A stretch of 64,000 nt of DNA from an uncultured virus (IMG/VR IMGVR_UViG_2891407665_000020). Taxonomy: Duplodnaviria; Heunggongvirae; Uroviricota; Caudoviricetes. The stretch lies in IMG/VR virus record IMGVR_UViG_2891407665_000020; one strand, given 5' to 3'. Below, one piece after another: positions 7,150-22,243 of the stretch. A program made the position numbers and the translations under genes. The number at the start of each line of letters is the position of its first letter. The stretch's first letter is position 1. Under the pieces are notes generated by a model that worked only from the letters and a program-made list of their open reading frames with translations, was not told where the DNA came from and did not search any database.

Positions 7150-7247
7150 AAGAAGAATGGAATGTTTAGTGATGAATATAAAGTGACAGAGTAGTCGGAA
7201 GAGTTATAAAGGATTGAATGAAATCAGTAAACTAGGGAGGTAGTTTA

Positions 7248-7513
7248 ATGCATGTTGATAAATGTATACTAAAATATGTAAAGCATGATTTAAAGATATT
7301 GCCGGAGTATTTTGAAGGGGTCATATCCGGTAAAAAAGATTTGAACTGCGGAAAAATGATAGGAATTATGAAATTGGGGATACATTCATCTTACGGGAGT
7401 GGAAACAAGATGTGGGTTATACTGGTAGATATTTTTTGCAAAGTATCAGCTATGTAATTAAAAACTGCCCAGAATATGGATTGATGGATGGGTATGCTAT
7501 ATTCGGATGGTGA
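7248..7513 (+). pseudogene. DUF3850/ASCH-like protein, frameshifted in an A6 run at about 7332-7337
   Basis: HDLKILPEYFEGVISGKK continues in another frame as RFELRKNDRNYEIGD...GYTGR...GYAIFGW*; one added A restores the ORF. Confidence 0.75.
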
Positions 7514-7577
7514 TCATATTAAGAACAAGTGTTGTGATTATCCTTATAGGGGTACGCTTGCATGTAGTAAACCTTGA

Positions 7578-7610
7578 GAGAGGGAGTCTATTCTGGCAGG
7601 CTTCTTTTTT
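7578..7610 (+). terminator. Terminator-like hairpin
   Basis: GAGAGGGAGTCT...AGGCTTCTTTTTT. Confidence 0.5.
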
Positions 7611-7642
7611 GGTTAGCAATAAAAACAATATTATAGTATATA

Positions 7643-7671
7643 TTGCAAATAAACATTTTGTAGTATAGAAT
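7643..7671 (+). promoter_or_regulatory. sigmaA-type promoter
   Basis: TTGCAA-17bp-TAGAAT, directly upstream of the GGAGG RBS of the DUF262 gene. Confidence 0.5.
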
Positions 7672-7684
7672 GGAGGAAAGTATT

Positions 7685-9521
7685 ATGAATAGGAGGAAAC
7701 GGACAGTGGCTGATGAATTAAATGTAAGGGGCACCTATATATTGGATACTTTCAAAGACTATTTAGAAGATGTGTACTGGGTAAATAGGCGATATCAGCG
7801 GAAATTAGTATGGACTTTGGAGGAGAAACAAAAATTCATTGATACTATTTTACACAATTATCCAGTACCGATTTTCCTTTTAGCAAAAATACAAATTAGA
7901 CGGCGAAGATAGCTATCGAAAAGAAATTATTGATGGTCTCCAGCGGTTGAATGCTATTTTTTCATTCATAAAAAATGAGTTTTCTGTTAAGTGGCAAGAT
8001 GGTAATTTTTACTATTTCAACGTTTCTGCGCTGGCGGGGGCTGAGCAAATGCTTGCAGACGGAATTCTAACCCAAGAAGAGAATAAGCTGGAACTCGGCG
8101 TTTGCAGAAAATTTCTGAACTACCAGCTACCGATAACAACGACTGAGGTAAGTGATACAGAGATAGAAGATATTTTTATCAGAATCAATTCCACTGGTAG
8201 AAAACTTTCGGCGCAGGATCTTAGGCAGGCAGGGGCAGTAGGATTGTTTTCAGACTTGGTTAGAAAAACTGCCTGCTATATCAGAGGAGATATAACTGAG
8301 AAAGATGTGGTGTCCTTATCGAAGATGCCGTCTTTAAGTCTAAGTCATAGAAAATTGAATTATGCTATAAATTTGTATGATACATTCTGGATGAAGAACA
8401 GAATTCTAACTGAAAAGAATTTAAGGCTTTCCCGGGACGAAGAGATTATTGCTCGTCTGTATAGTTATATGATTCTAGGCAATAAAGTATCTCCATCTTC
8501 TAACTCCTTAAATAAGATGTATGATAGCGACTCACGACAGAATACAGAGCTGAATACATATATTGAAAATTACGGATTACTTGAAATGATGGATAATTTC
8601 TCAAAAGTGTATTCTGACTTTAATAAAATATTCAGGAGTGTTGATTCTAACTTCTCAGCATGGTTATTCCGGGGTGAGGATGCCAAGGGAAGGGCGAAAG
8701 TGTTCCAAGCCTTATTTTTAGCATTGTACAATTTACGAAAGTCGCAATTTGATATTTCAGATTTTCGTAAAATTGCAAACGCTATTAAATATATAGGTGA
8801 TAAAGAATTTAAGGAGATAACAAATGATGAGGAGTGGAATATCGAAGTCCGCAACACAGCAATTCGAAGAATTACTAGTATCATACAGCCGTTAATGACT
8901 AAAAATATCAAGCTAGCAGAGAACAATGAGTGGAGATTAAAGCTGGAAACACTTTTGTCTGCAGCCTCCGGTGTTGAGTCACAGATGTTTGACTTTAAGT
9001 TGGGTCTAACTACTTTGCAAACTGGCCAGAGAAACAGGGAATGTGTTTCTAAAATCGTAAAAACTCTCACAGCAATGGCAAACACAAAGCCAAATGAAGA
9101 AGCTACTGTCTTGATCGGAATCGCAAATGATTTAGAGCACGCAAGGCAGTTTAGAAACTACTATGGAGCAAATTGGGTTCAGGTCGCTGAGTGCTATGTG
9201 ACAGGTATTGATGAAGAAATTCGAACGTATTGGAAAAGCAAAGAGGAATATTGTAACTTCATAAAGCGGGCAATTGAGAATGAGCCTGTACTTTCGGAAG
9301 TTTCCAGTCAGATTTTGAGAAATTTTCAGGTTATCACTTATGAGGATAAAACACTGATAATTTTAACACTAAAGAGTATTGGAAAACCACTTGCTTATGC
9401 AGAGGAGTTTTATGAACGGCATGGCAGTCATAATAGCAAAGTTGGGATAGGTACTCCAGAATTTTACGGATTATTTCAAAGATGCTCCACCGTCAATTTA
9501 GACAGTTGCAATCTGTTTTAA
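7685..9521 (+). pseudogene. DUF262 (ParB-like/GmrS) plus C-terminal Schlafen AlbA_2-like domain protein, frameshifted at about 7885-7889
   Basis: YQRKLVW...FIDTILHNYPVP; removing one A gives KYKLDGEDSYRKEIIDGLQRLNAI in frame with ORF 7947-9521; also IFIRINSTG and C-terminal ESQMFDFK...TLTAMANT...VLIGI. Confidence 0.75.
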
Positions 9522-9537
9522 TTATTAACTAGGCAGT

Positions 9538-9924
9538 GTGTCGAACATAACAAAAAGAAACGGCCTCGTACTTAGTACAATTACAGTAATCATAATGGAG
9601 ATAGGGCAGGCCATGAATGGGTTGTCTGCGAATAAGTTTCCGTTGTTTACACCGTATCAGATCACACTTATGGTGATTCGGGTGCTTGCTTATTACTCAA
9701 TCTATTATGTCGAGCAGATTAGGGGAAAATTTAGGTCAGCACTGGTTTTAGGAAATATGAATTTCGAGAAGAAAAGATTAAGCAATATTAATTTCCTGTA
9801 TCCAACCGTAGCTTCTGTTGCCGCGGTAGCTGACATTGCTGCGCTCATTAGGGATATTCAACTGGATTGGTATGTACGGCTGATTGTTGCACAGCATTGT
9901 TTGCGATTGTATTTATTTGCGTAA
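9538..9924 (+). CDS. Possible hydrophobic hypothetical protein or gene remnant
   Basis: 128-aa ORF with weak RBS. Confidence 0.3.
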   Translation: MSNITKRNGLVLSTITVIIMEIGQAMNGLSANKFPLFTPYQITLMVIRVLAYYSIYYVEQIRGKFRSALVLGNMNFEKKRLSNINFLYPTVASVAAVADIAALIRDIQLDWYVRLIVAQHCLRLYLFA

Positions 9925-10271
9925 TTGGTTATACGCAGTATGTGATACTTATCCGGCAGACAGTATGACTGGTCAGGGCAGGCTTGCAAGACAGTAGAGG
10001 GTGTCCCAAAAGTCATGAAGTGACTTGAGGGATTACCCTCTTTTTGCAAAAAAATAGAGAACGGTTACCACACCGTTCTCCATTTCTACCTCATTATGTG
10101 ATATAATAAGGTATGCTTACATTTAAAGATTATACAATGTAAATGCAGGGAAATGACTGATAATGAAGAGTACAGAAATACTGCTTGTAGAAGTAGATGA
10201 AATATTTATATAATGTTATGTAAATATGCAAAATATGATAAGCAGTAGATAGTATGGCCATTCACGAGTTT

Positions 10272-10307
10272 AAAGAGGAGTCTGTTTTGACAGGCTTCTC
10301 TTTCTTT
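10272..10307 (+). terminator. Terminator-like hairpin, similar to the one at 7578-7610
   Basis: AAAGAGGAGTCTG-TTTTGA-CAGGCTTCTCTTT. Confidence 0.5.
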
Positions 10308-10409
10308 GCGTTTAACAGTTATACACAGGCAGTTTATTGGGCACTAATGTGCGTCTTTTGCAGTATTGCATTATAATAGTAACAATGTAAAGAAGGAGGA
10401 GAAATCACA

Positions 10410-11324
10410 ATGACAGAAAGAATGGAAAAATACTTGGACTACTGTAAATATCGAAAAGAATTGGATGATAAGACTATAAAGGCATACCGAATTGATCTGC
10501 GTCAGTTTTCAGAAGCGGTCGAACGTGACACTTTAGACAGAACAGTGATTGAAGCATATATAACAGAGCTACATAAGAATTATAGGCAGAAAACCGTGAA
10601 ACGCAAAATAGCATCCATAAAGTCCTATTACAATTATTTAGAGGATGAGATGCTGATTGAAGAGAACCCATTCAGGAGGATTAAGGTTAAGTTCAAGGAA
10701 ACGGAGACTCTTCCGCGAATTATACCACGGGAGGAGATAGAGACGCTTTTAAACTGCATTTACCGGGAGCTTAATTCCAGTGTTGGCTGCGCGTACAGGT
10801 GCAGGCTTCGTGATGTGGCTGCCGTAGAATTGATGTTTGCCACAGGGGCAAGAGTATACGAGATATCCAGTATCAGAGAAGAGAGCATTAATCTAGACAG
10901 CGGTCTGATTCGATTTATGGGAAAGGGAAGAAAAGAGCGATATGTGCAGGTCAGCGACCCAGATGTTCTTTCTATACTCAGAAAATACTATGAGGAAAAT
11001 CAAGCAGCCATTAAAGAATGCGGATATTTCTTTGTAAACCGTTATGGCAATAGATTTACAGAGCAGGACATGCGGTACATGCTTAAACGGTATACAGCAT
11101 TAGCTGGAATTGAGAGGAATATTACGCCCCATATGTTCCGGCATTCATTCGCTACGTATTTAATCGAAGATGATGTAGACGTCAGCTGTGTACAGAGGAT
11201 ACTCGGGCACAGCTCTATTAACACTACGCAGATTTATATCCATGTGGCGGCAAAGAAGCAGGCCGAGATACTGAAAGAAAAGCACCCAAGGAACAAGATG
11301 AGAATAATACAGATACAGGGGTAG
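10410..11324 (+). CDS. Tyrosine recombinase (XerC/D-like), candidate invertase
   Basis: N-terminal SAM-like core-binding domain (KTIKAYRIDL); catalytic residues R (TGARVYE), K (GKGRKER), H-x-x-R (HMFRHSFAT), H (LGH), Y (TTQIY). Confidence 0.92.
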   Translation: MTERMEKYLDYCKYRKELDDKTIKAYRIDLRQFSEAVERDTLDRTVIEAYITELHKNYRQKTVKRKIASIKSYYNYLEDEMLIEENPFRRIKVKFKETETLPRIIPREEIETLLNCIYRELNSSVGCAYRCRLRDVAAVELMFATGARVYEISSIREESINLDSGLIRFMGKGRKERYVQVSDPDVLSILRKYYEENQAAIKECGYFFVNRYGNRFTEQDMRYMLKRYTALAGIERNITPHMFRHSFATYLIEDDVDVSCVQRILGHSSINTTQIYIHVAAKKQAEILKEKHPRNKMRIIQIQG

Positions 11325-11435
11325 TACGGTTTGTGGAGAGGGTGTATGCGGGGGTGTAAGCGCTATAGGATAAGACTATAGATAACTGAAAGGAAATATA
11401 AATTATGAGGAATGATTTCGAATTACAAAAATCTC

Positions 11436-11464
11436 TTGTTAAAAAATAGGATATGTGGTACAAT
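11436..11464 (+). promoter_or_regulatory. sigmaA promoter P1, outside invertible cassette 1
   Basis: TTGTTA-17bp-TACAAT with extended -10 TG. Confidence 0.65.
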
Positions 11465-11474
11465 GATGTCGTAG

Positions 11475-11545
11475 TAAAGGATAATAAGAAATTATCTTTC
11501 AGTATTTGTTAGATTGGAGAATACTTAGATGATTAATTTATATGA
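11475..11545 (+). repeat. Left arm of 71-bp perfect inverted repeat (IR1-L)
   Basis: Exact reverse complement of 14988-15058; contains GGATAA-TAAGAAA-TTATCT, the RBS and the ATG (MINLYE). Confidence 0.95.
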
Positions 11546-13970
11546 GTTTCAAAAGCGAACTCAAGAAAAAATTTGTGAGAAATTTAAAAGTGAAAATTTA
11601 ATTGTCCTATTAGGAGAAGAAGGAAGCGGAAAATCTACCATTATTAATGAATTATGTAAAAATCAAGAATTAAGCTCATATAATATTATAAAATTCACTG
11701 CTGATAAAACAAGTACAGCTGCTGAATATAATTGTATACCACAAGATAAACGACATGCTTTACTAGAGGAATCCTACAGTTTACAAATCAGTAAAGGGTT
11801 TTTAAAAGATATTGCAACAACTGTTACAAACGTTGTGGGCATTAGTTTTACAGATATGATGGAATCTTTAATGTCTTTACAAGAAATAAACGAATTAGAG
11901 CGTTTATTAAAAGTGCTAACTCACAACAAGAGTCTAGTTCATACACTCTATGTATTTGATAATATAGAATATTATGATAGTAAATCTGTGTTACTGATGA
12001 ATAATCTCATAAATTATATAATTAATAATGTTACTAATTCTAAAATGTTGCTTGCTGCAAATTCCGGAGAGAGCATCTTAGAAATGGAATTACCAGAAGT
12101 GGAATTTCTAGAAATTCTTGCCCCGACAGCACCTGAAGATTTCGAAGAATTTAAACCTATACCTGAATCAATAATTAAATGTACTCCCATTAAATATCTT
12201 ATAAAGTTTAAAAAATCTTCAAAAGACAAACAAATTAATAATTCAATCCCCGCTTTTTATAAAAATCAAATAGAAAAACTATCACATGAGTTTCCATTCA
12301 TTAAATATATTTTATATATATTAACATTATTTGATGAACCTTTAGATTTTTCTACAATAGCTATGTTATTACCAGAAATACCAGAGTATCAATTATATGA
12401 AGCAATAGTTGTTTTAAAATCAAAAGCAATCATCGAATCAACTTATCAAGGTAAAGAAGAAAACTATTGGCTTCTGCCATTTATAAAAAAATCTCTAACT
12501 GTATGTATTCCTGAATATGTTTTTCAGTATCGGTATTCTATTCTAAGTAAGCAAATGGAATGCGTGGAAACGTTTAATTATGTATTTAAATATACAATGT
12601 ATTTAAAAGTTGAGAATTATGAAAATGCTTATGGAAGCGCTATTTCAGCGTATTGCGCTAATGCAAGAGGTGAGACAAGATTTACAGGTACTGAACTAGG
12701 AAAATTAAATATATTTTTGCGCGATTCTCCTTACTTAGATTGTTTTTCTGTATTAGTAAATTGCTATAAACTATATAACCAAAATCAATATGATAAATGC
12801 TATGAGTGTGTTTCAAAATTTCATAGAGATAATAGTATATGGAGAAATGATGAATTTCAGCTAGCTTCATATACACCGGAATTCCTAATGGAATCTATAT
12901 TACTTCGGGAATGTTGTGTTGGAAGGATTTATGAGCATGATCAAACAGTAATTTGTGAAGAGTTAGGCTTATTAGATGCAATAATCAAGGTTTCGAAGAT
13001 TTTTAAAAATACATATCTATGGTTAAGATTAGAAGAGAAAAAGTTATTGCTAAGCTCCTATATCAGTCAACCCTCTCACAAAAAACAAAAAGAGTTAATA
13101 AATCATTTTTATAAATTATGTAACGCTTATCAAGCGCAAATTCGCGCTAGTTCTTGCAAATCTTTGAAGCAATGGACAACTCATTATGCAGCTCTTTTAA
13201 TGAAAGTCAATTTTATCCCTAATGTTGTAAACAAGGGATTTATATTAAATAAAGGATATTCTATTTTTGAAAAGAGCAAGGAATATAATGGAAAAAATTA
13301 TTTAAGAGCAGCGTGCAATTATGCCTGCGATTTGATGTGGCGAAATGGATTTGATAAAGCTAAAAAAATTTTAGAATCTGCAATTAACTATATAAAAGCT
13401 CATCAAATTGAAGAGTATTGGGGTATTATATTTCAGATGAAAATATTTGCTCAGCTATATGATGTGCATCCTGTTGAACCAATAATCCTGCTGAAAGAAT
13501 ATAGAAATGTTGTATGGAAGAACGTAAGCATACGAGAAAAAATGCATGAACCTTATATATGTAAATCGAATTATGCCATTTTATTGGCGGCAGCGGGACA
13601 GATAAGGAAAGCGCTTTTATTTCTAAAGGATATTGTAGATGAAAAAAAAGAAAATAGTTATAGTATATATGACAAATACTTGTTATATACCAATCTTGCC
13701 GCGCTTGAATTTTTAAACGGAAATTCCGTAAATGCAATAAAAATAGAAAGTGAGTGTAGTGATTGGATTGATCAAATTCCTATCTTTTCCTCCCCATTAT
13801 TGCAAAAGAGGCATGAACTTGTTTTGCATATCTATCACAATGAAAGTAAAGACTATATCAATGATGTAATAAAGGTATTGGTACCAACATCTACATTGTC
13901 CAGCGGATACTGCTCAGATAACTATAATAGATTAATGCTATTTTCGGATATCAACTATTGGGCTGACTAG
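11529..13970 (+). CDS. Large P-loop NTPase (STAND/AAA-like) with helical, TPR-like C-terminus
   Basis: Walker A GEEGSGKS, Walker B-like LYVFDNIE, long helical C-terminal region; AT-rich. Confidence 0.7.
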   Translation: MINLYEFQKRTQEKICEKFKSENLIVLLGEEGSGKSTIINELCKNQELSSYNIIKFTADKTSTAAEYNCIPQDKRHALLEESYSLQISKGFLKDIATTVTNVVGISFTDMMESLMSLQEINELERLLKVLTHNKSLVHTLYVFDNIEYYDSKSVLLMNNLINYIINNVTNSKMLLAANSGESILEMELPEVEFLEILAPTAPEDFEEFKPIPESIIKCTPIKYLIKFKKSSKDKQINNSIPAFYKNQIEKLSHEFPFIKYILYILTLFDEPLDFSTIAMLLPEIPEYQLYEAIVVLKSKAIIESTYQGKEENYWLLPFIKKSLTVCIPEYVFQYRYSILSKQMECVETFNYVFKYTMYLKVENYENAYGSAISAYCANARGETRFTGTELGKLNIFLRDSPYLDCFSVLVNCYKLYNQNQYDKCYECVSKFHRDNSIWRNDEFQLASYTPEFLMESILLRECCVGRIYEHDQTVICEELGLLDAIIKVSKIFKNTYLWLRLEEKKLLLSSYISQPSHKKQKELINHFYKLCNAYQAQIRASSCKSLKQWTTHYAALLMKVNFIPNVVNKGFILNKGYSIFEKSKEYNGKNYLRAACNYACDLMWRNGFDKAKKILESAINYIKAHQIEEYWGIIFQMKIFAQLYDVHPVEPIILLKEYRNVVWKNVSIREKMHEPYICKSNYAILLAAAGQIRKALLFLKDIVDEKKENSYSIYDKYLLYTNLAALEFLNGNSVNAIKIESECSDWIDQIPIFSSPLLQKRHELVLHIYHNESKDYINDVIKVLVPTSTLSSGYCSDNYNRLMLFSDINYWAD

Positions 13971-15004
13971 TAAATATCACAATTTAACAGTGATGAACCT
14001 ATTATTGCTTTGAACATGCTAGTATTGTCATTAAAAAGATATTTGAAAGACTGCCAACAGGTTCCGGTACTTGCCAAAACCGGAAGCGCTGCAATATCAA
14101 AAATAAAGAAATCATTAGAATTTTTTATCCTGTAGTCTATGCGTGTTAAACACTCAGCATTCAAAAAACGCATAACACTTTTTGAATGTTCTAATAGCTC
14201 GGGAATAAGATTATTATACGGAAAATCCTCATTTGGTAGAATTTTAAATCTGTATTTAAAATCATCAACAGCATCATACGTTAATATATCGCCTTCAAAA
14301 TCTACGCATACTGGAGGCATTGCTATGTAATCATCTTGACCCTTTATAACAGGAACAGATACTTCATATCCATCAATATATTCTTGAATAATAATATCTT
14401 CCTTGTATTTTTTTCGCATCATAGAAGCTTTCTCTAGTATTAAAAATTGATCATTTTTTACTTTTGTCACTCCCAATGCTGCACATTCAAGGGAAGGCTT
14501 TAATATTACATATTCTGATAAAATTTCGTTTACCGGAGTCGATTGACCGGCATACACTATTGTGTTTGCAACATGGCTAAATTGACTTAATGTCAAGAAG
14601 TAGTGTGCTTTATTAAGTAGAAGTCCAGATAAGTAAGCGTCACAAGCAAGATTGTACATTTTATATCGATGACATAGAGATGGTATATAAGAACGTCTTT
14701 CTACACCAGTGCCGATTTGCACTGTACTATATAACAAATGCTTAATGCTAGTGTTTTTAAACCTTCCATCTCTAAGGTCTTTTTCAAATTCCGTATAATC
14801 TGTATAAGCAGTATAAATTAAAGATGAAAGTAAAAATCCTTGCTCTATATCTTTAATTTCAGCTGGAAAAATCATTCCCGTAGCTGCTTCGCACTGATAA
14901 GGGTTATCAAACAGAGTGATAACATGTAATGTTTGCTTTGATTTATTCGCTATATCAATTAATTCTTGAACTTGTCTTCTTATGTTTTCATATAAATTAA
15001 TCAT
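13967..15004 (-). CDS. ATP-grasp protein (D-Ala-D-Ala ligase-like fold)
   Basis: ILKPSLECAALGV, IIIQEYIDGYEVSVPV, TRIDYRI, FIFDIAALP. Confidence 0.75.
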   Translation of the reverse strand: MINLYENIRRQVQELIDIANKSKQTLHVITLFDNPYQCEAATGMIFPAEIKDIEQGFLLSSLIYTAYTDYTEFEKDLRDGRFKNTSIKHLLYSTVQIGTGVERRSYIPSLCHRYKMYNLACDAYLSGLLLNKAHYFLTLSQFSHVANTIVYAGQSTPVNEILSEYVILKPSLECAALGVTKVKNDQFLILEKASMMRKKYKEDIIIQEYIDGYEVSVPVIKGQDDYIAMPPVCVDFEGDILTYDAVDDFKYRFKILPNEDFPYNNLIPELLEHSKSVMRFLNAECLTRIDYRIKNSNDFFIFDIAALPVLASTGTCWQSFKYLFNDNTSMFKAIIGSSLLNCDIY

Positions 15005-15058
15005 CTAAGTATTCTCCAATCTAACAAATACTGAAAGATAATTTCTTATTATCCTTTA
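14988..15058 (-). repeat. Right arm of 71-bp inverted repeat (IR1-R)
   Basis: Exact reverse complement of 11475-11545. Confidence 0.95.
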
Positions 15059-15500
15059 TTAAATAGGATTGAATAGTAAACGAAGTGGCAGTTCTATCGC
15101 AAGTACCGAAAATTAGAGCACATTTTCCCATCAAAAGCCCCTTATAATGACTGCCTGGAAACGCAAGCATCTACTTGTGTAAGGAAACCTGAGCAGATTA
15201 GACTGATTATGAAATGCCGCTAGAACAGACTCTCTAATTATCAATAATGCCCGCAATGAGACATTTATCCCGGGACCTTTTACAACTGAGTCAGTAAACT
15301 TCAAAAATTCGGTTATACCATTTCAGATTCGGAAAATAACTGCAAATGTTACTTACTGTTTAAATAGAAGATGCTGTTGCTGTGAAAATGGTTGTATATA
15401 AAAATAGATAATTTCAACAAAATAATAGTTATTGTAGCATTATATTAAATAGAGGTTGCTAATCTGAAAATAAAAGATGATTAAAAAATAAAAATCAATA

Positions 15501-15529
15501 TTGCCAACAAGCAGAATCTGTTGTATAAT
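15501..15529 (+). promoter_or_regulatory. sigmaA promoter P2, outside invertible cassette 2
   Basis: TTGCCA-17bp-TATAAT. Confidence 0.7.
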
Positions 15530-15537
15530 ATTGTCGA

Positions 15538-15566
15538 AGTAAAGGATAATTCGGAGTTATCCGTTG
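15538..15566 (+). repeat. Left arm of 29-bp perfect inverted repeat (IR2-L)
   Basis: AGTAAAGGATAATTCGGAGTTATCCGTTG, the reverse complement of 20293-20321. Confidence 0.92.
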
Positions 15567-15678
15567 GATATCGTGATTGGAATAAAATAAGAGATTATCC
15601 GTTGTAAATGATTGTACACTGCCTATCAACAAAATTCGGATTACACTTTGGGCATTTTATAATCTGCATGGGGGCAAG

Positions 15679-18600
15679 ATGAAAAAATTACGTTTAGAGT
15701 ATTGGGATTATTTTACAAAAAAGGGTAAGGGTGGAAAAACAAGGGGAGATGGAATAAAGTTTGAAGGATTGGTTAAATGTTTGTTGGCAGCTCAATATGG
15801 AATAGAGTGGATCGGTACTCAAAAAAGCTACGATGATAATAGGGATTTTTGGATTTATTTCAAGGAAAAACATCTCTGGGCAGAGTGTAAAAACTATAAA
15901 GATTCAATTGCTATGGATGTTTTGGCACCGACTTTAGTAATGGCTCATATATACGAAGTAAATGAAATTTTATTTTTCAGTCGTTCAAACATTAACCCAA
16001 ATGCTAAAAATAAAATTTTAGCATTTGGTGAAAAAAGCAATAAGACAATTTTATTTTTCGATGGTGTAAATTTAGAAAAACTACTATGGGATTACCAGAA
16101 TTGTATACCTAAAGAATACTCCCCATCGGATTTTTGGGAAGACGCGCAGCCAGATTCATTTGCAGAGCCTTTTGTGCACCTATACTTCTTTAAGAATGCT
16201 GTTTCCAATGTAAATGCTATAGCAGAGTCCTTTATAAGTTACACAAGCGCAGATACAATATACTATAATGAAACATTTGCATTGACCTTTTTCTTAACAA
16301 ATAATCTTTCGGAAGATGATGTTGAAATTGGAATTGAATTTATGGATGACGGGAACGACCGGTTTTCATTTCAATATTTTAACCCGACCATTGTCCCTGA
16401 AAAGTGCCAATGGTATCAAGCATCTTTAAAAAGAGGAGAAGGAAGAGCGATTTCGCTGAATATGCGTCAAGTACGATATAAAGCTCAGATTTGTTTACCA
16501 AAGTTTCACGTTTGGATTTCATCTGCTAAAAGTGATTTTTTTGCTGAGTGGAATTCAGCGGTCAAATCTGTAAAATGTAGTTGGGTAGGAAAAACGCAGC
16601 TTATTGGTTCAAACTATTTAGGCATTCTTGAAATAACAGAGGAGCAGCTTATCGGCAATCCTAACCTATCTAGTTTGATTCTCACCGGAAGTAGTGGAAC
16701 AGGGAAAACCCGTCTTTTAAGTGAATGTCGAAATGTTTTTTTGAAAAAAGGCTATTGTATTCTTGATTTTTCAGGACAGAAAGATTTTTCTTCTCGATAT
16801 TTCTTAAAAGAAATTGTTTCTTTCCTGTATGAAATTCCCAGTGATATGGTGTTGGAACTGCTTGAACAGCGCTTATTTACTGATTATTCCGAGGAAAGTT
16901 TTCCGAAAAATACGGAAGCAGAAAAGGCAGTTCGTCTTCTGGCTTTAATTATGAAAAGCTGTACAGAGGATTCCCTGCAAAACATGTTGAGTTCATACGG
17001 CAGCATATTATATAAAAAGTTGTCGCAGAATAAAAATGTGCTGGTTATAGATAATTTGCAGTATACCGGAAGCGCGTTCCGATACTTTATAGAACAATAT
17101 ATTTACTATGCAATTAATCAGCAATCTGTAAACCATTCTGTTCTGCTACTTGCTTTCAATATTGATTACATGACAACTGCCACTTCAGAAATGCTTTATA
17201 ATCTTCTGCATTCGGATATTCCACGCTTACTTTCGTATCAATTGACGGGTTTTTGCAAAAAAGAGCAGGGTATTGCATTTCTACAGGAATTGACTCGAAC
17301 AAAGAAGGATGAGAATATAGATTTCTTCTCTGAGATTATTATTAAAGTTTCTCTTAATCCATACAACCTGTTTCAGACAGTGAAATATCTGGAAGAGACA
17401 GATATTGTCCAGATTACACCAGAAAAAAACGGATATATTGCTCCTGGCCTAGAAAAATATAGGGTACTCTCTAATATTGATATTACAGATGTATTAGAAA
17501 AAAGATTTCAATTTATCAGTATTCAGATTCCGATGGAAAAGCTCTTATTTATTTGTTCAGTCATATATGTATTTGATTTTGTCGATTCCAAACTGCAGAG
17601 TATATTTCAAATTTCAACTGAAGAGTTGGATTGTCTCTGTAAAAAACACATTTTGCAGTTATCGCAACAAGGCATCTATCTTTTCGATCATGACGTTATT
17701 CGTAAATTTTTTTGTACAAAATATGCAGACAGTGTTCTTAACTGTTTAGAATGGATTCATAGGCAGAAAAGCATAGAAAAAATTCGTCGATATCGGATGG
17801 CTTGTTCTGTCTACGAGGTTGCAATTGAAAAAAACAAAGAAACAATTTTGCGCTTTTGCCGCAATCTTCCCACGCTATGTATACCCGAGAGGCTCGCCTC
17901 GCTGTTTTATAACCATTTGTTAGATGCATTTACGGAACTGATAGAAGATGGCAATTATGAAGGAATGTATTTAAAATATATTCATCAGATATGCATATAT
18001 GTGCGGCAATATGATGGCTCCCAAAAAGCATGGTTAGTAACAAAGCAAATGTTTGACACTATTCAAGCATACTGCCCCGACGCATTGTCAAAGGACACGG
18101 CATACTACCGCCCATTGATACATTTTTCCTGTGATATTGCTATTCAATTATATTTCTATGAGGAAGCAGTTCTTTTTATAAATGACGTTTTAAATGCTTG
18201 TAAAAATGCATGCCCAAACAATGTGGAAAATAGTGATGAATTATATGTTTTACAGGCAATTATGTACAATCGCTGGTATATTACATATAATACGCAAAGT
18301 TACAAAGAAGAAATTCAAGAATTACGCCGCTCTTTAATGGATAAATCACGGGCTTATATTGACAAAATCGTTGATACGGAAAAGAAAGGGCTTATAGAAT
18401 ATCTTAACTTTTCTGATGAAGGTTATAACTATTATGGTTATCTAAAAAACAAGAAAAAACTATTAAATATATGGGACAATTGTATCAAGGATATTCCCAA
18501 TATGGTTCCTGAAAAAACATTGAATTATTACAGAAAAACAGTTCAATATGCATTGATTCATCAAGATAAAAACGCTGTCAAAGACGAAACGCGAAAGGCA

Positions 18601-19089
18601 ATGCAGTATCTAGAAGAAGGCAAATATTCACATGAACCGATTATTTTTAAAACGTTTTTCCTTATGGCGGAAATAATGTCTAATCTTCAGCATTCGCCGG
18701 AAAGGACATACTTCTATAATGCTCGGCTTATTGATAATATTTTACAAACACAATTGCTTCTAAATAATCACAAGATAGGAGATATTCTCCTTTTAAAAGG
18801 CGTAAATGCATATTATGCCGGAAATATGGATGAAGTTTATTATTCGTTTAAAGAAGCTTATGAGCACTATTCAAACGGTGAAACTTCTCGTTACTGGATA
18901 AAAGAATCTTTATTAAAAGAAAACGTAAATTACACATTTACGGTTCTCGGAATTTATAACAAAGGGTATAATGTCTCCTGTTTCCCTGATACATGGCGCA
19001 AGCCACTAATGCTTTCTAATCGAAATAAGTTTGAAGCAAGCGGTATTCAGCGTACGGGGGATTTATGCCTGAATCTGCCATTAATATGA
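15679..19089 (+). CDS. Mrr-like PD-(D/E)xK endonuclease fused to a P-loop NTPase and helical C-terminus (Avs/STAND-like defence candidate)
   Basis: GIKFEGLV...DDNRDF...WAECKNY nuclease motif; Walker A GSSGTGKT; Walker B VLVIDNLQ; LFDHDVIR. Confidence 0.75.
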   Translation: MKKLRLEYWDYFTKKGKGGKTRGDGIKFEGLVKCLLAAQYGIEWIGTQKSYDDNRDFWIYFKEKHLWAECKNYKDSIAMDVLAPTLVMAHIYEVNEILFFSRSNINPNAKNKILAFGEKSNKTILFFDGVNLEKLLWDYQNCIPKEYSPSDFWEDAQPDSFAEPFVHLYFFKNAVSNVNAIAESFISYTSADTIYYNETFALTFFLTNNLSEDDVEIGIEFMDDGNDRFSFQYFNPTIVPEKCQWYQASLKRGEGRAISLNMRQVRYKAQICLPKFHVWISSAKSDFFAEWNSAVKSVKCSWVGKTQLIGSNYLGILEITEEQLIGNPNLSSLILTGSSGTGKTRLLSECRNVFLKKGYCILDFSGQKDFSSRYFLKEIVSFLYEIPSDMVLELLEQRLFTDYSEESFPKNTEAEKAVRLLALIMKSCTEDSLQNMLSSYGSILYKKLSQNKNVLVIDNLQYTGSAFRYFIEQYIYYAINQQSVNHSVLLLAFNIDYMTTATSEMLYNLLHSDIPRLLSYQLTGFCKKEQGIAFLQELTRTKKDENIDFFSEIIIKVSLNPYNLFQTVKYLEETDIVQITPEKNGYIAPGLEKYRVLSNIDITDVLEKRFQFISIQIPMEKLLFICSVIYVFDFVDSKLQSIFQISTEELDCLCKKHILQLSQQGIYLFDHDVIRKFFCTKYADSVLNCLEWIHRQKSIEKIRRYRMACSVYEVAIEKNKETILRFCRNLPTLCIPERLASLFYNHLLDAFTELIEDGNYEGMYLKYIHQICIYVRQYDGSQKAWLVTKQMFDTIQAYCPDALSKDTAYYRPLIHFSCDIAIQLYFYEEAVLFINDVLNACKNACPNNVENSDELYVLQAIMYNRWYITYNTQSYKEEIQELRRSLMDKSRAYIDKIVDTEKKGLIEYLNFSDEGYNYYGYLKNKKKLLNIWDNCIKDIPNMVPEKTLNYYRKTVQYALIHQDKNAVKDETRKAMQYLEEGKYSHEPIIFKTFFLMAEIMSNLQHSPERTYFYNARLIDNILQTQLLLNNHKIGDILLLKGVNAYYAGNMDEVYYSFKEAYEHYSNGETSRYWIKESLLKENVNYTFTVLGIYNKGYNVSCFPDTWRKPLMLSNRNKFEASGIQRTGDLCLNLPLI

Positions 19090-19091
19090 AA

Positions 19092-20210
19092 TCAGCATTT
19101 CCGGTCTGCAATGATAGAAAGCGGTAAAATATTCCCATGGCGGTCTACAACGATATCATCTTGAATATTGCGCATACGAAACCAGAGCTCATTGTCAAAA
19201 AGTCCTACAAAGGTATCGACAAAATAAAGAATCGGCGTTACCAAATCAATGAACTCAAATGATGAATCATTGTATAATACAATATGTTCATTGTCCCGAA
19301 TGGCATTCGGACGTTCTATAATGTCAAGGAATTGAATACCTAAGCATTTTTCTATCATTTGATAAAAGGACTTTCTGTCATAAAGAGTTGTAAGGTCTAA
19401 CATAAGATATTGGTGCACATTTAGTGGATACATTTTAAGGAAATAGTCTGCGCTGATTTTATACCATGCACTATTATCATACACTATTTTTGCATAATCC
19501 TTCATACCATACATTCCTTTTGCATCCAGCCTATAATAGCTGAAACGGGATTTAGAGTTATTTGGATCGGTTCCTCCTTTATGATATGCAGTTGCTCCTG
19601 CAGATACCCATGTTTCGTAACCGATGTCACGTAAACGAAAACAATAGTCACAATCTGTATAAGAATAAGGAATGTCTTCATCCATTCCGCCAATGCGATT
19701 ATATAAAGTCTTGGTAGTCATCATTATAGCGCTACATACCGTCTGCACACAGCGGTCATCTGCTGCTAACGGATGGTTGTATAATAATCCCATCATAGTA
19801 TGCGCTGCATTGAATTTTGAATACATAATTCCAAAATCTAGGATTCGATTATTAAGCGGATTTATCAATTTTGCGCCTGCAACTCCAATTTTATCCGAGC
19901 TCAAAAATGTTTTTAGAAGTGCTTCGTACCAGCCATCCCATACAAAAATGTCTGCGTCTACAAAAGTAATAATTTCTCCGGCACACATTTCTACGCTAAG
20001 ATTTAATGCTTTAGGATATTGAATATTTTGGTACACCTTATAGTAATTACACCGTGGATTTGAGATTTCCATATCTAAATCGCTGCTGTTAACATTATTG
20101 CCAATAATAAAAATCTCCACATCATCAGGAACCGTTTTTAAAATCCTGTTCAAGCAAAATATGAGCATATCCTTATTTTTATGATATGTAATTATAATTG
20201 ATTGTCGCAT
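19092..20210 (-). CDS. Glycosyltransferase family 2 protein
   Basis: SIIITYH..., ITFVDAD (DxD), IGGMDED...YTDCDYCFRL. Confidence 0.85.
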   Translation of the reverse strand: MRQSIIITYHKNKDMLIFCLNRILKTVPDDVEIFIIGNNVNSSDLDMEISNPRCNYYKVYQNIQYPKALNLSVEMCAGEIITFVDADIFVWDGWYEALLKTFLSSDKIGVAGAKLINPLNNRILDFGIMYSKFNAAHTMMGLLYNHPLAADDRCVQTVCSAIMMTTKTLYNRIGGMDEDIPYSYTDCDYCFRLRDIGYETWVSAGATAYHKGGTDPNNSKSRFSYYRLDAKGMYGMKDYAKIVYDNSAWYKISADYFLKMYPLNVHQYLMLDLTTLYDRKSFYQMIEKCLGIQFLDIIERPNAIRDNEHIVLYNDSSFEFIDLVTPILYFVDTFVGLFDNELWFRMRNIQDDIVVDRHGNILPLSIIADRKC

Positions 20211-20292
20211 AAGACCTCGCTTTTCTTAATCATTTAATAAATAATCTAGTATTATCTCTTGTTAGCTGTAGCATCTGTATCTAACACATTTA

Positions 20293-20321
20293 CAACGGAT
20301 AACTCCGAATTATCCTTTACT
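20293..20321 (-). repeat. Right arm of 29-bp inverted repeat (IR2-R)
   Basis: CAACGGATAACTCCGAATTATCCTTTACT. Confidence 0.92.
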
Positions 20322-20330
20322 AATTCCCTC

Positions 20331-20358
20331 TTGCGCTATCTTACCAGTCTGTTATAAT
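20331..20358 (+). promoter_or_regulatory. sigmaA-type promoter for the 20449 gene
   Basis: TTGCGC-16bp-TATAAT with extended -10 TG. Confidence 0.5.
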
Positions 20359-20448
20359 AGTATTGAAAAATTACTTAAAACGTTTTTACGTGCCACAGGG
20401 GTTTATACATAAGTAATAAAACAATAATAAGACGAGGAGTGATACGTT

Positions 20449-21906
20449 ATGAAGAAAATGAAAAGATTTATGACTGTAGTCATGATAGCCATCGCGATTA
20501 TGCTGGTTCTTCCATTTAGGGCAGAGGCAGCTCCTAAATTAAGTAAGAAAAAGATTACTCTGACTGTAAAGAAGAGCGCTACTCTCAGTGTGAAAGGGAG
20601 CAACAAGAAAAAAGTACAGTGGAAGACTTCCCACAAGAAAGTGGTTCAGATTAAAAAGACGAAAAAGCAGACGAGTGTAAAACTCGTAGCAAAGAAAAAA
20701 GGAACAGCTAAGATTACCGCTACTGTAGGAAAGAAGAAACTTACCTGTAAGGTGACTGTGAAAGCGAAGAAGTCTGTGAAACCGTCGGAGACTCCGGCTA
20801 CTCCTAGCAAGCCTTCTGATAATCCTGTAAAACCAAGTCAGCCGAGTAATCCGAATACTCCTAATAAACCATCGACCGGTGGTACAGGGACTGGAATTAA
20901 GGACATTGTTATCGGCAATGGTACTCTTGATTACCCAGGGAAAGATAATAAATACTACCTTGGATACACTGCAACAACAGAGGAAGCAAAAGAGTACTAC
21001 ATGAATGGTGTTGCGTTAACTGGAGACGGAAAACCGACGGGATTGATTACTGGTATGTATGGCAAGGAATTGCACAATGGCGATACTTTTTTTATTTACA
21101 AATCTTCGCGGGATGATTACGATGACCCTGCTTATTATCGCAGAGGAGAAATAATGTTTCCTGAGGGTATATCTGTTGAACAAATTTCTTGGGAAATTAC
21201 GAATAATAAGACTGCTGATGGTGATGGTCATGAATCTGTGCTCTGTATACTAGTCTATGAAGATTATGATGGTTATCCAGCAGTACAATGCTTTGGTTTA
21301 CGTGAAGGGACAGCTGATCTTACTGTGAGTGCAAAGAATGATGCTGGCAATGTTCTCTACTCTGTAACAGTGCATGTAGATAATCGGTATGTCGATCTAG
21401 AGTACCAAAAGTACTATGGCTGGCTTGAAGAGATGGTGAATACCCCTGTTGGCACGACTAAGTATGTTACTATTAATGATGAGAATATTCGTGTAGACGG
21501 CGCTCAGGGAGCTGATGATGTCGAGACACTGATGAATGTTGGCGCATGGATTGCTGACCATAAGATTCATACGGGCACCGGTCCTATGGGGGATGACCCT
21601 GCACATTTCTATAGAGACAGCTGTAAAGGTGGCGACTGTGGTGACCTCAACCAGGTTATTGCGGATGCAGCGACTGTGCTGGGACACACGGGATGGGAGA
21701 CGCTGGTGCTGGGTATGGGCGGAAAGATCGGGCATATAGTTACGAAGGCTGTTGTTGGTGATGTTGTTTGTAGATTTGACGCGGGTGTATCCGGTACCAA
21801 ATTACCGAGGAGCTTTGTAGGATTTGTAATTGATAAGAGCGGTAATCAAATTGCCACTTATTTCAATACTGGGTACGGTGGATGCACCAAGAGGATAGAT
21901 TCATAA
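20449..21906 (+). CDS. Secreted protein: Ig-like (Big_2) domain, Pro-rich linker, transglutaminase-like C-terminus
   Basis: Signal peptide ending AEA; Lys-rich Ig domain (KKKGTAKITATVG); PSKP linker; GDC...GHI...FDAG Cys-His-Asp candidates. Confidence 0.65.
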   Translation: MKKMKRFMTVVMIAIAIMLVLPFRAEAAPKLSKKKITLTVKKSATLSVKGSNKKKVQWKTSHKKVVQIKKTKKQTSVKLVAKKKGTAKITATVGKKKLTCKVTVKAKKSVKPSETPATPSKPSDNPVKPSQPSNPNTPNKPSTGGTGTGIKDIVIGNGTLDYPGKDNKYYLGYTATTEEAKEYYMNGVALTGDGKPTGLITGMYGKELHNGDTFFIYKSSRDDYDDPAYYRRGEIMFPEGISVEQISWEITNNKTADGDGHESVLCILVYEDYDGYPAVQCFGLREGTADLTVSAKNDAGNVLYSVTVHVDNRYVDLEYQKYYGWLEEMVNTPVGTTKYVTINDENIRVDGAQGADDVETLMNVGAWIADHKIHTGTGPMGDDPAHFYRDSCKGGDCGDLNQVIADAATVLGHTGWETLVLGMGGKIGHIVTKAVVGDVVCRFDAGVSGTKLPRSFVGFVIDKSGNQIATYFNTGYGGCTKRIDS

Positions 21907-21912
21907 CCTTAC

Positions 21913-21949
21913 TACCTGTACGTTTCGAAGAGGGGCGTACAGGTATTTT
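21913..21949 (+). terminator. Intrinsic terminator
   Basis: TACCTGTACG...CGTACAGGTA then TTTT. Confidence 0.65.
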
Positions 21950-22243
21950 GCTGTAATAGCTGTTCTGCAGGTGCAGATGGTGGGTTATCGCAGCATGAAA
22001 CTTAGAATAAGTAAACCAAAGGAGTTTGTGTAAAATTTTATACATAATTGATAAGAATGAGTAGTAGCGAGCTTGGGTGTGTCCCAGGCTCGTTTTCTTA
22101 CGCAAACATACTTTTGGTATGGCAAGTTTCAGTGGAGAAGAGAGGGGGAATGCCTATGCGAGAGGATGGGTGTAGCGGTAGACCTAATGCACCGCCTGCT
22201 GTTGATTGGTTGATGATAATGAGACACAATTAACGGGAGGAAA

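Follow-up and report, generated by a model that had tools for sequence, protein, structure and literature searches.

The locus described here is DNA of a gut bacterium, and the same design also occurs in many related gut bacteria. Within the window, by which we mean the whole 64-kb stretch of DNA analysed, two convergent gene pairs, each framed by inverted repeats, lie downstream of a recombinase gene. The locus comprises the following features:

10410-11324, plus strand: Xer-like tyrosine recombinase, candidate invertase, 304 aa (Pfam)
11436-11464, plus strand: P1, predicted fixed promoter flanking cassette 1 on its left (TTGTTA-17-TACAAT with TG)
11472-11545: left inverted repeat of cassette 1, 74 nt, 99% identity with the right arm; contains the left core TAAAGGATAA-TAAGAAA-TTATCTTTCA
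11529-13970, plus strand: putative STAND-type P-loop NTPase, 813 aa (weak Pfam matches); faces P1 in the assembly
13967-15004, minus strand: ATP-grasp enzyme, D-Ala-D-Ala-ligase-like, 345 aa (Pfam)
14988-15061: right inverted repeat of cassette 1, partner of 11472-11545
15062-15537: inter-cassette spacer with an IS66-family TnpA remnant and a leftward promoter-like match
15176-15339: IS66-family TnpA gene remnant, matching the region of a 136-aa ORF in the related locus L010
15501-15529, plus strand: P2, predicted fixed promoter flanking cassette 2 on its left (TTGCCA-17-TATAAT)
15538-15571: left inverted repeat of cassette 2, 34 nt, 94% identity with the right arm; contains the left core TAAAGGATAA-TTCGGAG-TTATCCGTTG
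15679-19089, plus strand: protein with Mrr-type nuclease and putative STAND-type ATPase, 1136 aa; faces P2 in the assembly
19092-20210, minus strand: family-2 glycosyltransferase (GT2), 372 aa (Pfam)
20288-20321: right inverted repeat of cassette 2, partner of 15538-15571

The recombinase matched Pfam Phage_integrase (1.4e-38) and a SAM-like N-terminal domain. It has the fold and the complete catalytic R-K-H-R-H/W-Y set of tyrosine recombinases, with R148, K172, H241, R244, H267 and Y276 invariant across 12 homologues. This confirms the first-pass annotation, which had placed an intact tyrosine recombinase just upstream of the cassettes. XerC or XerD proper was rejected: the protein reached 235-236 bits on the NCBIfam XerD and XerC models, compared to cut-offs of 329.6 and 335, and homologues at E <= 1e-60 were restricted to 56 of the 401 genomes sampled from the family. 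An integron-type integrase was also rejected (TIGR02249, 98.9 bits against a cut-off of 265), as was a serine invertase system of the Gin/Hin kind, since the sole recombinase at the locus is of the tyrosine type. Judged from sequence, the adjacent enzyme is probably the invertase of these cassettes.

The inverted repeats are perfect over 71 of 74 nt in cassette 1 (11475-11545) and over 29 of 34 nt in cassette 2 (15538-15566), in agreement with the perfect repeats first noted around the two convergent pairs, and the site said to be common to all four cassette ends, TAAAGGATAA-N7-TTATC, is indeed present as an exact copy at each. When up to 2 mismatches were allowed, this motif gave 9 matches in the 64-kb window compared to 0.25 expected, a number reached in none of 100 shuffles; eight represent the four sites on both strands, while the ninth, at 42688, has 2 mismatches and is unrelated. 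In the core, a 7-nt spacer separates the outer arm A(G/A)TAAAGGATAA from an inner arm that varies more, an arrangement that at the sequence level is the anatomy of a tyrosine recombinase core site. The spacers of cassettes 1 and 2, TAAGAAA and TTCGGAG, differ at 5 of 7 positions. The inner part of the cassette 1 repeat carries a ribosome-binding site, the ATG and the first six codons, and both cassette 1 proteins therefore start with MINLYE. The two segments measure 3.6 kb (cassette 1) and 4.8 kb (cassette 2), with a G+C content of 30.3% and 34.5%, respectively, compared to 42.7% across the window. The transposase remnant between them was assigned through L010, where a 136-aa ORF that overlaps the matching stretch gave an IS66 TnpA hit of 1.7e-10.

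Within each cassette, the two genes come from unrelated families. In cassette 1, whose convergent genes overlap by 4 nt at their 3' ends, the 813-aa NTPase gave weak, sub-threshold Pfam matches to nSTAND6, nSTAND3 and AAA_16 within residues 9-160; no effector domain was recognisable in it, and its nearest Atlas clusters contain AAA_16/AAA_22, WHD_MalT and TPR families. The opposing ATP-grasp enzyme matched Pfam Dala_Dala_lig_C (2.7e-12) and, in structure, ATP-grasp clusters of the Atlas (TM 0.82-0.94), and scored far under the cut-offs of the NCBIfam Ddl models. The convergent genes of cassette 2 are separated by 2 nt. Its 1136-aa protein contains Pfam Mrr_cat at residues 24-136 (22.9 bits, cut-off 21) and AAA_16 at 328-466, without a match among PADLOC or NCBIfam models, and the glycosyltransferase matched Pfam Glycos_transf_2 (1.7e-10) and, weakly, NCBIfam polysaccharide glycosyltransferase models. 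A terminator-like site between the convergent genes was looked for in both cassettes and not found. Among the four cassette proteins the best PADLOC match had an E value of 0.0011, covered the P-loop only and was not significant, the other three being without match. The large cassette proteins may act in phage defence.

Sigma-A-type promoters had been proposed just outside both left ends at equal spacing. P1 and P2 agree with this: downstream of each come 8 nt that include TGTCG, and then AGTAAAGG. P2 matches the consensus at 11 of 12 positions, the top score in 10000-21000, and P1 also precedes the single cassette of the nearest compared genome, G001. The accompanying claim that no comparable promoter lies beside the right ends agrees with a motif search, in which none comparable to P1 or P2 faced them. 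Matches outside the right ends are weaker (TTGCGA-18-TACTAT, 8/12; TCAATA-17-TAAGAT, 7/12), and two leftward candidates lie farther away, one running from 15468 to 15439 (10/12, about 380 nt from cassette 1) and one from 20453 to 20424 (9/12, about 100 nt from cassette 2). Taken together, promoter-like matches in this AT-rich stretch are about as frequent as chance predicts (50 found, 52 expected).

The weak promoter-like matches on the right sides, together with the ribosome-binding site and start codon inside the cassette 1 repeat, would suit a static locus, in which the repeats serve as common operators or leaders, the two convergent genes are each transcribed on their own and the flipped contigs result from misassembly. 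We consider this highly improbable, as two independent contigs of run X7 contain both reciprocal flipped junctions of cassette 2. This run, taken from another sample and from a study other than that of the possible source runs, represents a near-identical strain in which none of the 40 base differences listed is seen. In one contig, 15029-15566 continues into the opposite strand at 20292 (shorter side 51 letters, 29 of them shared), and in the other, 20293-21255 continues into the opposite strand at 15567 (shorter side 240 letters, 29 shared), at similar depths of 8 and 7.4. Because the 29-nt perfect repeat is shorter than the 31-letter contig words, these joints are orientation-specific. Inversion of cassette 2 is real, as seen in contigs rather than raw reads and in one of four runs examined; the opposite orientation, sought elsewhere, was thus found in another sample. 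In X9 and X15, contigs break off at the ends of the cassette 2 repeat or begin one base outside them, which fits a branch in the assembly graph as a mixed population would give.

Contigs of this type are blind to the orientation of cassette 1, because its 71-nt repeat exceeds the 31-letter words. X13 contains one joint of opposite strands at this cassette, from 11474 to 15058 across the 71-nt repeat, with almost no depth over 11536-11919; given the 31-letter words and the near-zero depth, a graph artefact could yield the same contig. Both orientations in otherwise identical DNA were accordingly found for cassette 2 only. The initial claim that both cassettes invert holds for cassette 2, and cassette 1 presumably inverts as well.

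A survey of related recombinase loci showed that the arrangement is recurrent. The core GGATAA-N7-TTATCC, with at most 1 mismatch, was found within 1.5 kb of 24 of 30 homologues. Among the 23 loci with wider flanks, 12 carried inverted site pairs, bounding 13 cassettes in total. The paired spacers were reverse-complementary in all 13, that is, inverted sites with matching spacers as in an inversion system, and every cassette had its own spacer. Such palindromic arms around a 7-nt spacer beside the recombinase, and the invariable complementarity of paired spacers, argue further against a static locus. No site pair was found at 10 of the 23 loci when up to 2 core mismatches were allowed, and L064 has a weaker pair with 3. 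A contig end lay within about 105 nt of a site in 8/30 loci, and at least 14 of 59 recombinase hits started less than 300 nt from a contig start.

Promoters were scored on the outer flanks of these cassettes as matches of at least 9/12 ending no more than 30 nt from the core. A strong match was present on exactly one outer flank of 10/13 cassettes and on both flanks of none; the same search gave no match at the remaining three. Random 90-nt windows from the same loci contained such a match in 5.8% of cases, corresponding to a binomial P of about 1e-6 for the one-sided enrichment, though these loci are related to one another and P1 is common to two of the cassettes. Recombinase, site, cassette and one-sided promoter are linked family-wide.

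Typically, a cassette of this family sets a large STAND/TPR/TIR protein convergent with a D-Ala-D-Ala-ligase-like ATP-grasp enzyme, a pairing kept in 7 of 13 cassettes, with only 24% identity between the ATP-grasp copies. The sole match to the window ATP-grasp enzyme among 401 genomes of the order is a gene of L060, inside another such cassette. Immune-type cargo in relatives includes TIR-TPR, TIR plus TPR protein, and ThsA and ThsB, with matches to ThsA, ThsB and PDC-S66 models; in L065, Thoeris ThsA (model match 1.1e-60) stands opposite ThsB. The large gene lies behind the promoter in both window cassettes and in L005, L060, L062 and L066, and the enzyme genes do so in L059; both gene placements occur among assemblies. 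The ATP-grasp gene is the one near the recombinase in L060, L062 and L066, and the far one in L054, L058, L005 and the window. However, in all six cassettes whose promoter was identified and whose partner gene encodes an ATP-grasp or GT2 enzyme, the assembly has the large gene behind the promoter, which counts against free, unbiased switching because more spread would be expected. In six loci (L058, L059, L060, L062, L065 and L066) the end of the recombinase gene abuts the core or lies within it, and its transcript therefore probably runs on into the cassette from the other end.

This cargo bears on a reading in which both genes of a cassette are parts of a single system, with an enzyme working alongside a sensor or effector in the way that ThsB accompanies ThsA. 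Transcription would then be strong from one side and weak from the other, through recombinase read-through or a weak promoter, and inversion would change which partner is in excess, tuning or arming the system rather than choosing between two traits. The conserved pairing, the location of the only ATP-grasp relative in the L060 cassette, the ThsA/ThsB cassette and the recombinase stop codons abutting the core all speak for it, as does the fact that every family-assigned cassette except L008 (GT2 alone) opposes one or more enzymes to a large repeat-rich or ligand-binding protein. We nevertheless regard it as rather unlikely, since the right ends in the window have no promoter comparable to P1 or P2, and two-sided transcription would collide where the convergent genes overlap or nearly touch with no terminator-like site between them.

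Comparison with G001 bears on a further reading of these sites. Its left flank is 96% and its right flank 89% identical to the window, yet one unrelated cassette replaces the two; homology ends at 11499 and resumes at 20293, the outermost cores. Together with the low cassette G+C, the IS66 remnant and the spacer particular to each cassette, this could mean that the sites bound promoterless units swapped between strains in a loosely integron-like manner, with inversion as a side reaction. As an explanation of the locus this seems to us quite improbable: a segment between inverted sites cannot be excised, the integron-integrase model score is far too low, the one-sided promoter is conserved, and the near-identical strain differs only in the orientation of cassette 2.

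We favour the interpretation of the locus as a two-unit DNA-inversion switch, with a probability of about 65%. The adjacent Xer-like recombinase would act on the two inverted cores of each cassette and turn the 3.6-kb and 4.8-kb segments around, and the fixed sigma-A promoter 8 nt outside one end would read into whichever gene adjoins. A flip of cassette 1 would join either the STAND NTPase or the ATP-grasp enzyme to the strong promoter, and a flip of cassette 2 would choose in the same way between the Mrr-STAND protein and the glycosyltransferase; the gene left at the far end would face a flank without a comparable promoter and probably be read antisense. Expression is thus predicted to follow cassette orientation. 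The four states initially proposed are plausible, as the spacer differences would allow one enzyme to flip each cassette alone without joining them. The partner enzymes might provide an alternative trait (envelope, small-molecule chemistry) or be working partners whose relative dose is swapped.

Mutually exclusive expression, as first proposed, agrees with the one-sided strong promoter match; its strict either/or form is opposed by the conserved STAND plus ATP-grasp pairing, the ThsA/ThsB cassette and the recombinase genes reading into the other end. ThsA and ThsB work together, and their opposition within one cassette therefore argues against strict either/or logic. The conserved pairing and this cassette suggest partners that must act together.

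More tentatively, Lachnospiraceae-type gut bacteria may possess a widespread, undescribed class of flip cassettes whose arrays give combinatorial immune states, partial-population arming and strain-to-strain replacement, a generalisation that is possible and still doubtful. If true, an immune sensor or effector (STAND/TPR, TIR, ThsA) would stand tail-to-tail with enzymes (Ddl-like ATP-grasp, KamA-type radical SAM, GT2, ThsB) making a small molecule or envelope change. One Xer-like recombinase would flip each cassette independently via its specific spacers, and cassettes would also be exchanged between strains at the sites. As the partners would not both be behind the strong promoter, the full system would exist only in recent switchers or in cells with a low partner dose, which would be a built-in means of arming a costly, suicidal defence in a minor subpopulation whose membership shifts.

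A published description of this flip-cassette system was not found in the literature. In the Mu G segment with Gin, P1 with Cin and Salmonella Hin, an invertible segment likewise presents convergent alternative genes to a fixed outside promoter; these systems use serine invertases with an enhancer and related tail-fibre genes as alternatives, whereas a tyrosine recombinase is present here. Integrons combine a tyrosine recombinase, a fixed promoter and arrays of promoterless cassettes with strain-variable content, which are excised and inserted at attC and attI sites; here, in contrast, the sites are inverted pairs and the recombinase falls below the IntI-type model. Likeness to Thoeris and Avs-like STAND defence lies in the ThsA and ThsB of L065, the TIR plus TPR cargo of relatives and, in cassette 2, a nuclease domain followed by a STAND ATPase, although the window proteins have no significant PADLOC match. 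We know of no defence system with a Ddl-like ATP-grasp enzyme, and to our knowledge Thoeris genes have not been described as convergent within an invertible cassette.

The general principle is already known: according to PMC3047005, a Xer-like recombinase joins a silent gene to a unique promoter in Mycoplasma and Ureaplasma. The vsp, vpma, vsa and mba/UU172 loci have a Xer-type recombinase (Xer1, HvsR) beside the locus, as here, and shuffle related surface lipoprotein genes for antigenic variation. The alternatives in our cassettes are not related surface antigen genes; each unit instead pairs an immune-type NTPase gene with an enzyme gene, both cytoplasmic and unrelated to each other, with one promoter per cassette and cassette-specific spacers. 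In gene-altering programmed inversions, according to PMC9881135, the recombinase adjoins defence genes, Type I R-M, BREX and DISARM are phase-variable, and genes lie tail-to-tail when the repeats are near their 5' ends. These inversions, including the hsdS 'epigenetic invertons', are described as exchanging homologous parts of related genes and so altering specificity, whereas here whole unrelated genes would change place relative to a promoter. Finally, the Clostridia 'inverton group 139' with its tyrosine 'invertase group 35' is characterised in PMC11892184 by short inverted repeats and a neighbouring tyrosine recombinase, present in gut Clostridia, and may use the same enzyme family as the recombinase described here. 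Like fimS with FimB/FimE, the Bacteroides invertons and those of C. difficile RecV, it is described as flipping a promoter-bearing segment of about 200 bp; at this locus, the promoter is fixed and the genes flip.

The locus is a real feature of the window, with the gene set described by the first-pass annotation: a recombinase followed by an NTPase/ATP-grasp pair and an NTPase/GT2 pair. Its elements are listed below; cassettes 1 and 2 are the two convergent gene pairs lying between inverted repeats, and P1 and P2 the candidate promoters outside their left ends.

10410..11324 (+): tyrosine-type recombinase gene, 304 aa
11436-11464: P1, TTGTTA-17-TACAAT with TG, 8 nt ahead of AGTAAAGG
11472-11545 and 14988-15061: cassette 1 arms, 74 nt with a single mismatch at the outer edge, 71 nt perfect
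Between these arms: genes for an 813-aa P-loop protein and a convergent 345-aa ATP-grasp enzyme, 3' ends overlapping by 4 nt
15501-15529: P2, TTGCCA-17-TATAAT, 8 nt ahead of AGTAAAGG, the top match in 10000-21000
15538-15571 and 20288-20321: cassette 2 arms, 34 nt, 94%, of which 29 nt perfect
Between these arms: genes for a 1136-aa Mrr-nuclease plus STAND-type ATPase and a convergent 372-aa GT2 glycosyltransferase, 2 nt apart

The inverted repeats claimed to bound both gene pairs are thus borne out, as is the common motif: TAAAGGATAA-N7-TTATC is present exactly at 4/4 cassette ends. Allowing up to 2 mismatches, it matched nine times in the whole window compared to 0.25 expected, and eight of the nine matches are the four near-palindromic cassette sites counted on both strands. 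In each site the outer arm, A(G/A)TAAAGGATAA, is conserved, and a 7-nt spacer separates it from an inner arm that varies more (TGAAAGATAA in cassette 1 versus CAACGGATAA in cassette 2); as judged from this anatomy, all four are predicted to be classic tyrosine-recombinase cores. The spacer is TAAGAAA in cassette 1 and TTCGGAG in cassette 2. In Cre/lox and FLP/FRT, spacer mismatch blocks recombination. Since the spacers differ, recombination from cassette to cassette should likewise be blocked, while flipping of each would still be allowed. The cassette 1 repeat spans the ribosome-binding site and codons 1-6, and both cassette 1 proteins therefore start with MINLYE. G+C content is 30.3% and 34.5% in the cassettes versus 42.7% in the window.

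Further core-like sequences were noticed nearby. An extra copy of the inner-arm sequence TTATCCGTTGTAAAT lies at 15592-15610, some 40 nt in from the left repeat of cassette 2, and fits the inward extension of the right arm better than the left arm does; it may have been left by an earlier repeat or may act as an accessory half-site. Positions 11366-11386, past the recombinase stop codon and ahead of P1, read GGATAA-N7-GATAAC, two GATAA half-sites in direct order. This element is conserved in the nearest genome (G001) and is a candidate binding site with an accessory or autoregulatory role.

A promoter had been claimed outside each left end at equal spacing, with nothing comparable outside the right ends. 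As motifs, P1 and P2 agree with this, both 8 nt from the site. Close to the sites the right flanks yielded promoter matches of just 7-8/12, and better leftward candidates lie farther off (15468->15439, 10/12; 20453->20424, 9/12). In this AT-rich DNA promoter-like matches are in total at chance level (50 found, 52 expected), therefore the promoter argument leans on position and on conservation among relatives. No terminator-like site was found on the + strand in 10310-17060, a region covering the end of the recombinase gene, the whole of cassette 1, the spacer between the cassettes and P2.

We read the locus as a promoter-addition inversion switch with up to four states, and give this whole reading a probability of roughly 65%. 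The Xer-like recombinase would flip each cassette at its own core pair, and the gene adjoining the fixed promoter would be the one expressed. The other gene would have no comparable promoter. As the convergent genes are directly adjacent and the search revealed no terminator-like site separating them, this gene would probably be transcribed in the antisense direction. With incompatible spacers in the two cassettes, up to four states would result.

Eighteen public sequencing runs, mostly mouse gut metagenome by label, contain at least half of the window's sampled words. Four runs of four studies (X7, X9, X13 and X15), none flagged as a likely origin of the window, were compared with the window as contigs made from 31-letter words. 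One X7 contig follows 15029-15566 and continues on the opposite strand starting at 20292; a second follows 20293-21255 and continues on the opposite strand starting at 15567, extending 240 letters past the joint. These two joints are the reciprocal junctions of a flipped cassette 2, with the GT2 gene behind P2. The contigs can tell the orientation of cassette 2 because its 29-nt perfect repeat is shorter than the words. None of 40 listed base differences from the window occurs in X7, which therefore represents a near-identical strain differing by the orientation of cassette 2. Beside these junctions, a static locus is very improbable.

X9 and X15 contigs end at, or begin one base outside, the cassette 2 repeat ends; this gives only a hint of an assembly-graph branch from a mixed population. 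The words are too short to span the 71-nt repeat of cassette 1, so that all four boundary words occur in either orientation. An X13 contig joining 11474 to 15058 was rejected as a cassette 1 inversion on account of this repeat length and because depth falls to nearly nil at 11536-11919; an artefact of the assembly graph could explain it. The proposal that both cassettes invert thus stands for cassette 2, by the two X7 junctions; that cassette 1 also inverts, we infer. Three other joints (X13 10234->15465, X7 10616->11121 and X7 11149->11222) were discounted, having fewer than 30 letters on one side. Separately, X9, X13 and X15 share a one-base deletion at 15584. X13 and X15 contigs leave the window sequence at 15490 and 15491 as loose ends, and X15 contigs do not cover the right flank past 20368 (region 20368-21500), so these samples differ in arrangement around P2 or in the right flank.

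G001 contains 85% of the window's words, matching at 96% over 10000-11499 and at 89% over 20293-21000, with no match between. Since homology ends at 11499 and resumes at 20293, the variable segment is delimited by the outermost cores. Within the same flanks, and with P1 in common, G001 carries a single 3.5-kb cassette with a perfect 68-nt inverted repeat and the spacer TTAGGAG, encoding a 774-aa protein with a P-loop-like N-terminus and a 317-aa ATP-grasp enzyme. The ATP-grasp enzymes of the window and G001 are 24% identical (E 3e-12); the large proteins are scarcely alignable (E 0.054, P-loop only). Cassettes thus appear to have been replaced at the sites between these close strains. No other species genome turned up with the window cassettes in a DNA search of the genus. 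That the sites serve primarily for cassette exchange, in place of the flipping seen in X7, is nonetheless improbable in our assessment.

A genus-wide site search found a core pair in G001 only, and in a further genome (G119) a lone site with the cassette 1 spacer at a contig end. There, at 8400-8499 of the fetched stretch L006 (contig C100), a promoter-like TTGAAT-17-TATAAT precedes two tandem cores with spacers TACTAAA and TAAGAAA, and the contig stops within the second. In another relative's stretch, L061, two tandem cores lie 46 nt apart and a partner was not found; the long repeats of L062 and G001 each contain a second core-like element. These arrangements suggest nested or multi-site versions.

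The recombinase, claimed to be intact and immediately upstream, has the full set of catalytic residues, all invariant across 12 homologues. It scores as Xer-like, under the XerC and XerD model cut-offs. Among named relatives, the one in Blautia schinkii is 65% identical and the one in an uncultured mouse-gut Lachnospiraceae genome 56%. A sample of 401 genomes of the family (one genome for each genus, with G001 added) includes 56 with homologues at E <= 1e-60. A GGATAA-N7-TTATCC core (up to one mismatch) lies within 1.5 kb of the gene in 24 of the 30 best loci; in 8/30 the core lies no more than about 105 nt from a contig end, and at least 14/59 recombinase hits start less than 300 nt from a contig start. 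Mixed orientations would be expected to break contigs at such short repeats.

A wider survey covered 23 loci, namely 20 larger stretches fetched from relatives, the window, G001 and L008. Inverted core pairs with exactly reverse-complementary spacers are present at 12/23 loci, enclosing 13 cassettes of 1.2-5.3 kb, and the spacer differs for every one of the 13. L064 has a weaker pair, its partner core carrying 3 mismatches. A pair at up to 2 mismatches was not found in ten of the 23 stretches (L052, L055, L056, L057, L061, L063, L067, L068, L069 and L070), several of which are cut by contig ends, that of L052 covering the wrong side. When the 813-aa NTPase was used for a protein-guided scan, a single distant locus turned up, L072, with a recombinase gene end, a site and a truncated 210-aa NTPase-like ORF, which is uninformative on orientation.

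Cargo of the site-bounded cassettes (L numbers are stretches of relatives' genomes; "versus" separates the two sides)
Window cassette 1, G001, L054, L058, L060, L062, L066 (7/13): large P-loop/TPR protein, 768-955 aa, versus Ddl-like ATP-grasp
L066: TIR fused to the large protein, versus ATP-grasp and KamA-family radical SAM enzyme
L062: large protein with a separate TIR gene, versus Ddl-like ATP-grasp
L059: 815-aa protein versus alcohol-dehydrogenase-like gene plus GNAT and SHMT-like gene
L051, L053: 561-aa protein versus 364-aa (L051) or 337-aa (L053) protein, all without Pfam match
L008: GT2 alone, opposite side none
Window cassette 2: Mrr-STAND protein versus GT2
L065:14563-16907 (genome G315): ThsB (TIR, 239 aa) versus ThsA (SIR2-STALD, 493 aa, PADLOC 1.1e-60)

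L065 thus holds a complete Thoeris pair, tail-to-tail, within a site-bounded cassette. A promoter match of at least 9/12 ending within 30 nt of the core was found on exactly one outer flank in 10/13 cassettes and on both flanks in none of the 13; random 90-nt windows taken from these loci have such a match in 5.8% of cases. The nominal P is about 1e-6, but the loci are kin, and window cassette 1 and G001 have P1 in common. Behind the promoter lies the large immune-type gene in both window cassettes, G001, L060, L062 and L066, ThsB in L065, the enzyme pair in L059 and the small unknown gene in L051 and L053. The opposite orientation had been proposed as something to look for in related genomes. 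The ATP-grasp gene is nearer the recombinase in L060, L062 and L066, and farther in the window, G001, L054 and L058; therefore both placements of this STAND/ATP-grasp type of cassette exist. At E <= 1e-12 among 401 genomes of the order, the sole match to the window ATP-grasp was the ATP-grasp gene of the L060 cassette.

In six loci (L058, L059, L060, L062, L065 and L066) the end of the recombinase gene falls at or within the core, in L065 20 nt upstream of the ThsA start codon. The strong promoter of these loci is at the far end where found, with none in L058. There, transcription of the recombinase gene probably runs on into the cassette from its second side. Under the main alternative explanation, the two genes are partners of one system transcribed from both flanks, and flipping exchanges their relative dose. 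The conserved STAND/ATP-grasp-type pairing and the ThsA/ThsB cassette speak for it, and next to the one-sided promoters we consider it possible, if rather unlikely.

Around the promoter-addition switch that we favour, 15176-15339, between the cassettes, is 69-77% identical to DNA in 11/122 genomes of the genus and represents an IS66 TnpA gene remnant, since its counterpart in L010 overlaps a 136-aa ORF matching IS66-family TnpA. Positions 10000-10046, with a hairpin terminator-like site (10027-10040), are a short dispersed repeat, as 84-95% identical copies occur in more than 10 genomes of the genus. Upstream, 6337-9924 encodes an IrrE/ImmA-like M78 peptidase and a 524-aa protein with weak AlbA_2/Schlafen and GmrSD_N matches, neighbours that look defence- or mobile-related. 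A long co-directional gene run at 22244-63538 includes ParA, a sortase, a BspA-type LRR protein, a 2407-aa adhesin with TQ ester-bond domains, a 2752-aa fusion of RNA polymerase beta- and beta'-like domains and a 1341-aa family-A DNA polymerase, and looks like a large mobile or phage-like element. The five proteins of the locus gave no significant match to PADLOC models. Rfam returned just a sub-threshold chance snR83 match in 9000-22000, and no tRNA or tmRNA was found in the whole window. Megablast of 10000-21000 against plasmid and phage collections gave no match, and the exact 28-base stretch of P1 plus outer arm had no hits in JGI metagenome contigs.

The locus bears on the regulation of phage defence. 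A switch of this kind would give a testable bet-hedging model for limiting the cost of abortive-infection-type immunity, would be a lead to the function of the uncharacterised STAND and ATP-grasp pair, and would account for assembly breaks at these loci. The sites would also form a natural, mutually independent set for one recombinase that could become a multi-bit DNA switch.

To our knowledge, phase variation of phage defence is known mainly as specificity change (R-M, BREX, DISARM) or as promoter flips. Here, in contrast, whole immune-type genes (STAND NTPases, TIR proteins, a Thoeris pair) stand opposite enzymes in invertible cassettes with a probably dedicated recombinase and cassette-specific spacers, a design seen in roughly one of every seven genera sampled from a major gut family. 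Flip cassettes of the STAND/ATP-grasp or immune-gene kind were not found in the literature searched. In the gene-altering programmed inversions of defence loci, homologous gene parts are exchanged (PMC9881135). In gut Clostridia, a group of small invertons is linked to a tyrosine recombinase group (PMC11892184), which may be of the same enzyme family as the recombinase here. The nearest described mechanism is that of the Mycoplasma vsp, vpma and vsa and Ureaplasma mba loci, where Xer-like recombinases join silent genes to a unique promoter, the cargo there being related surface antigens (PMC3047005).
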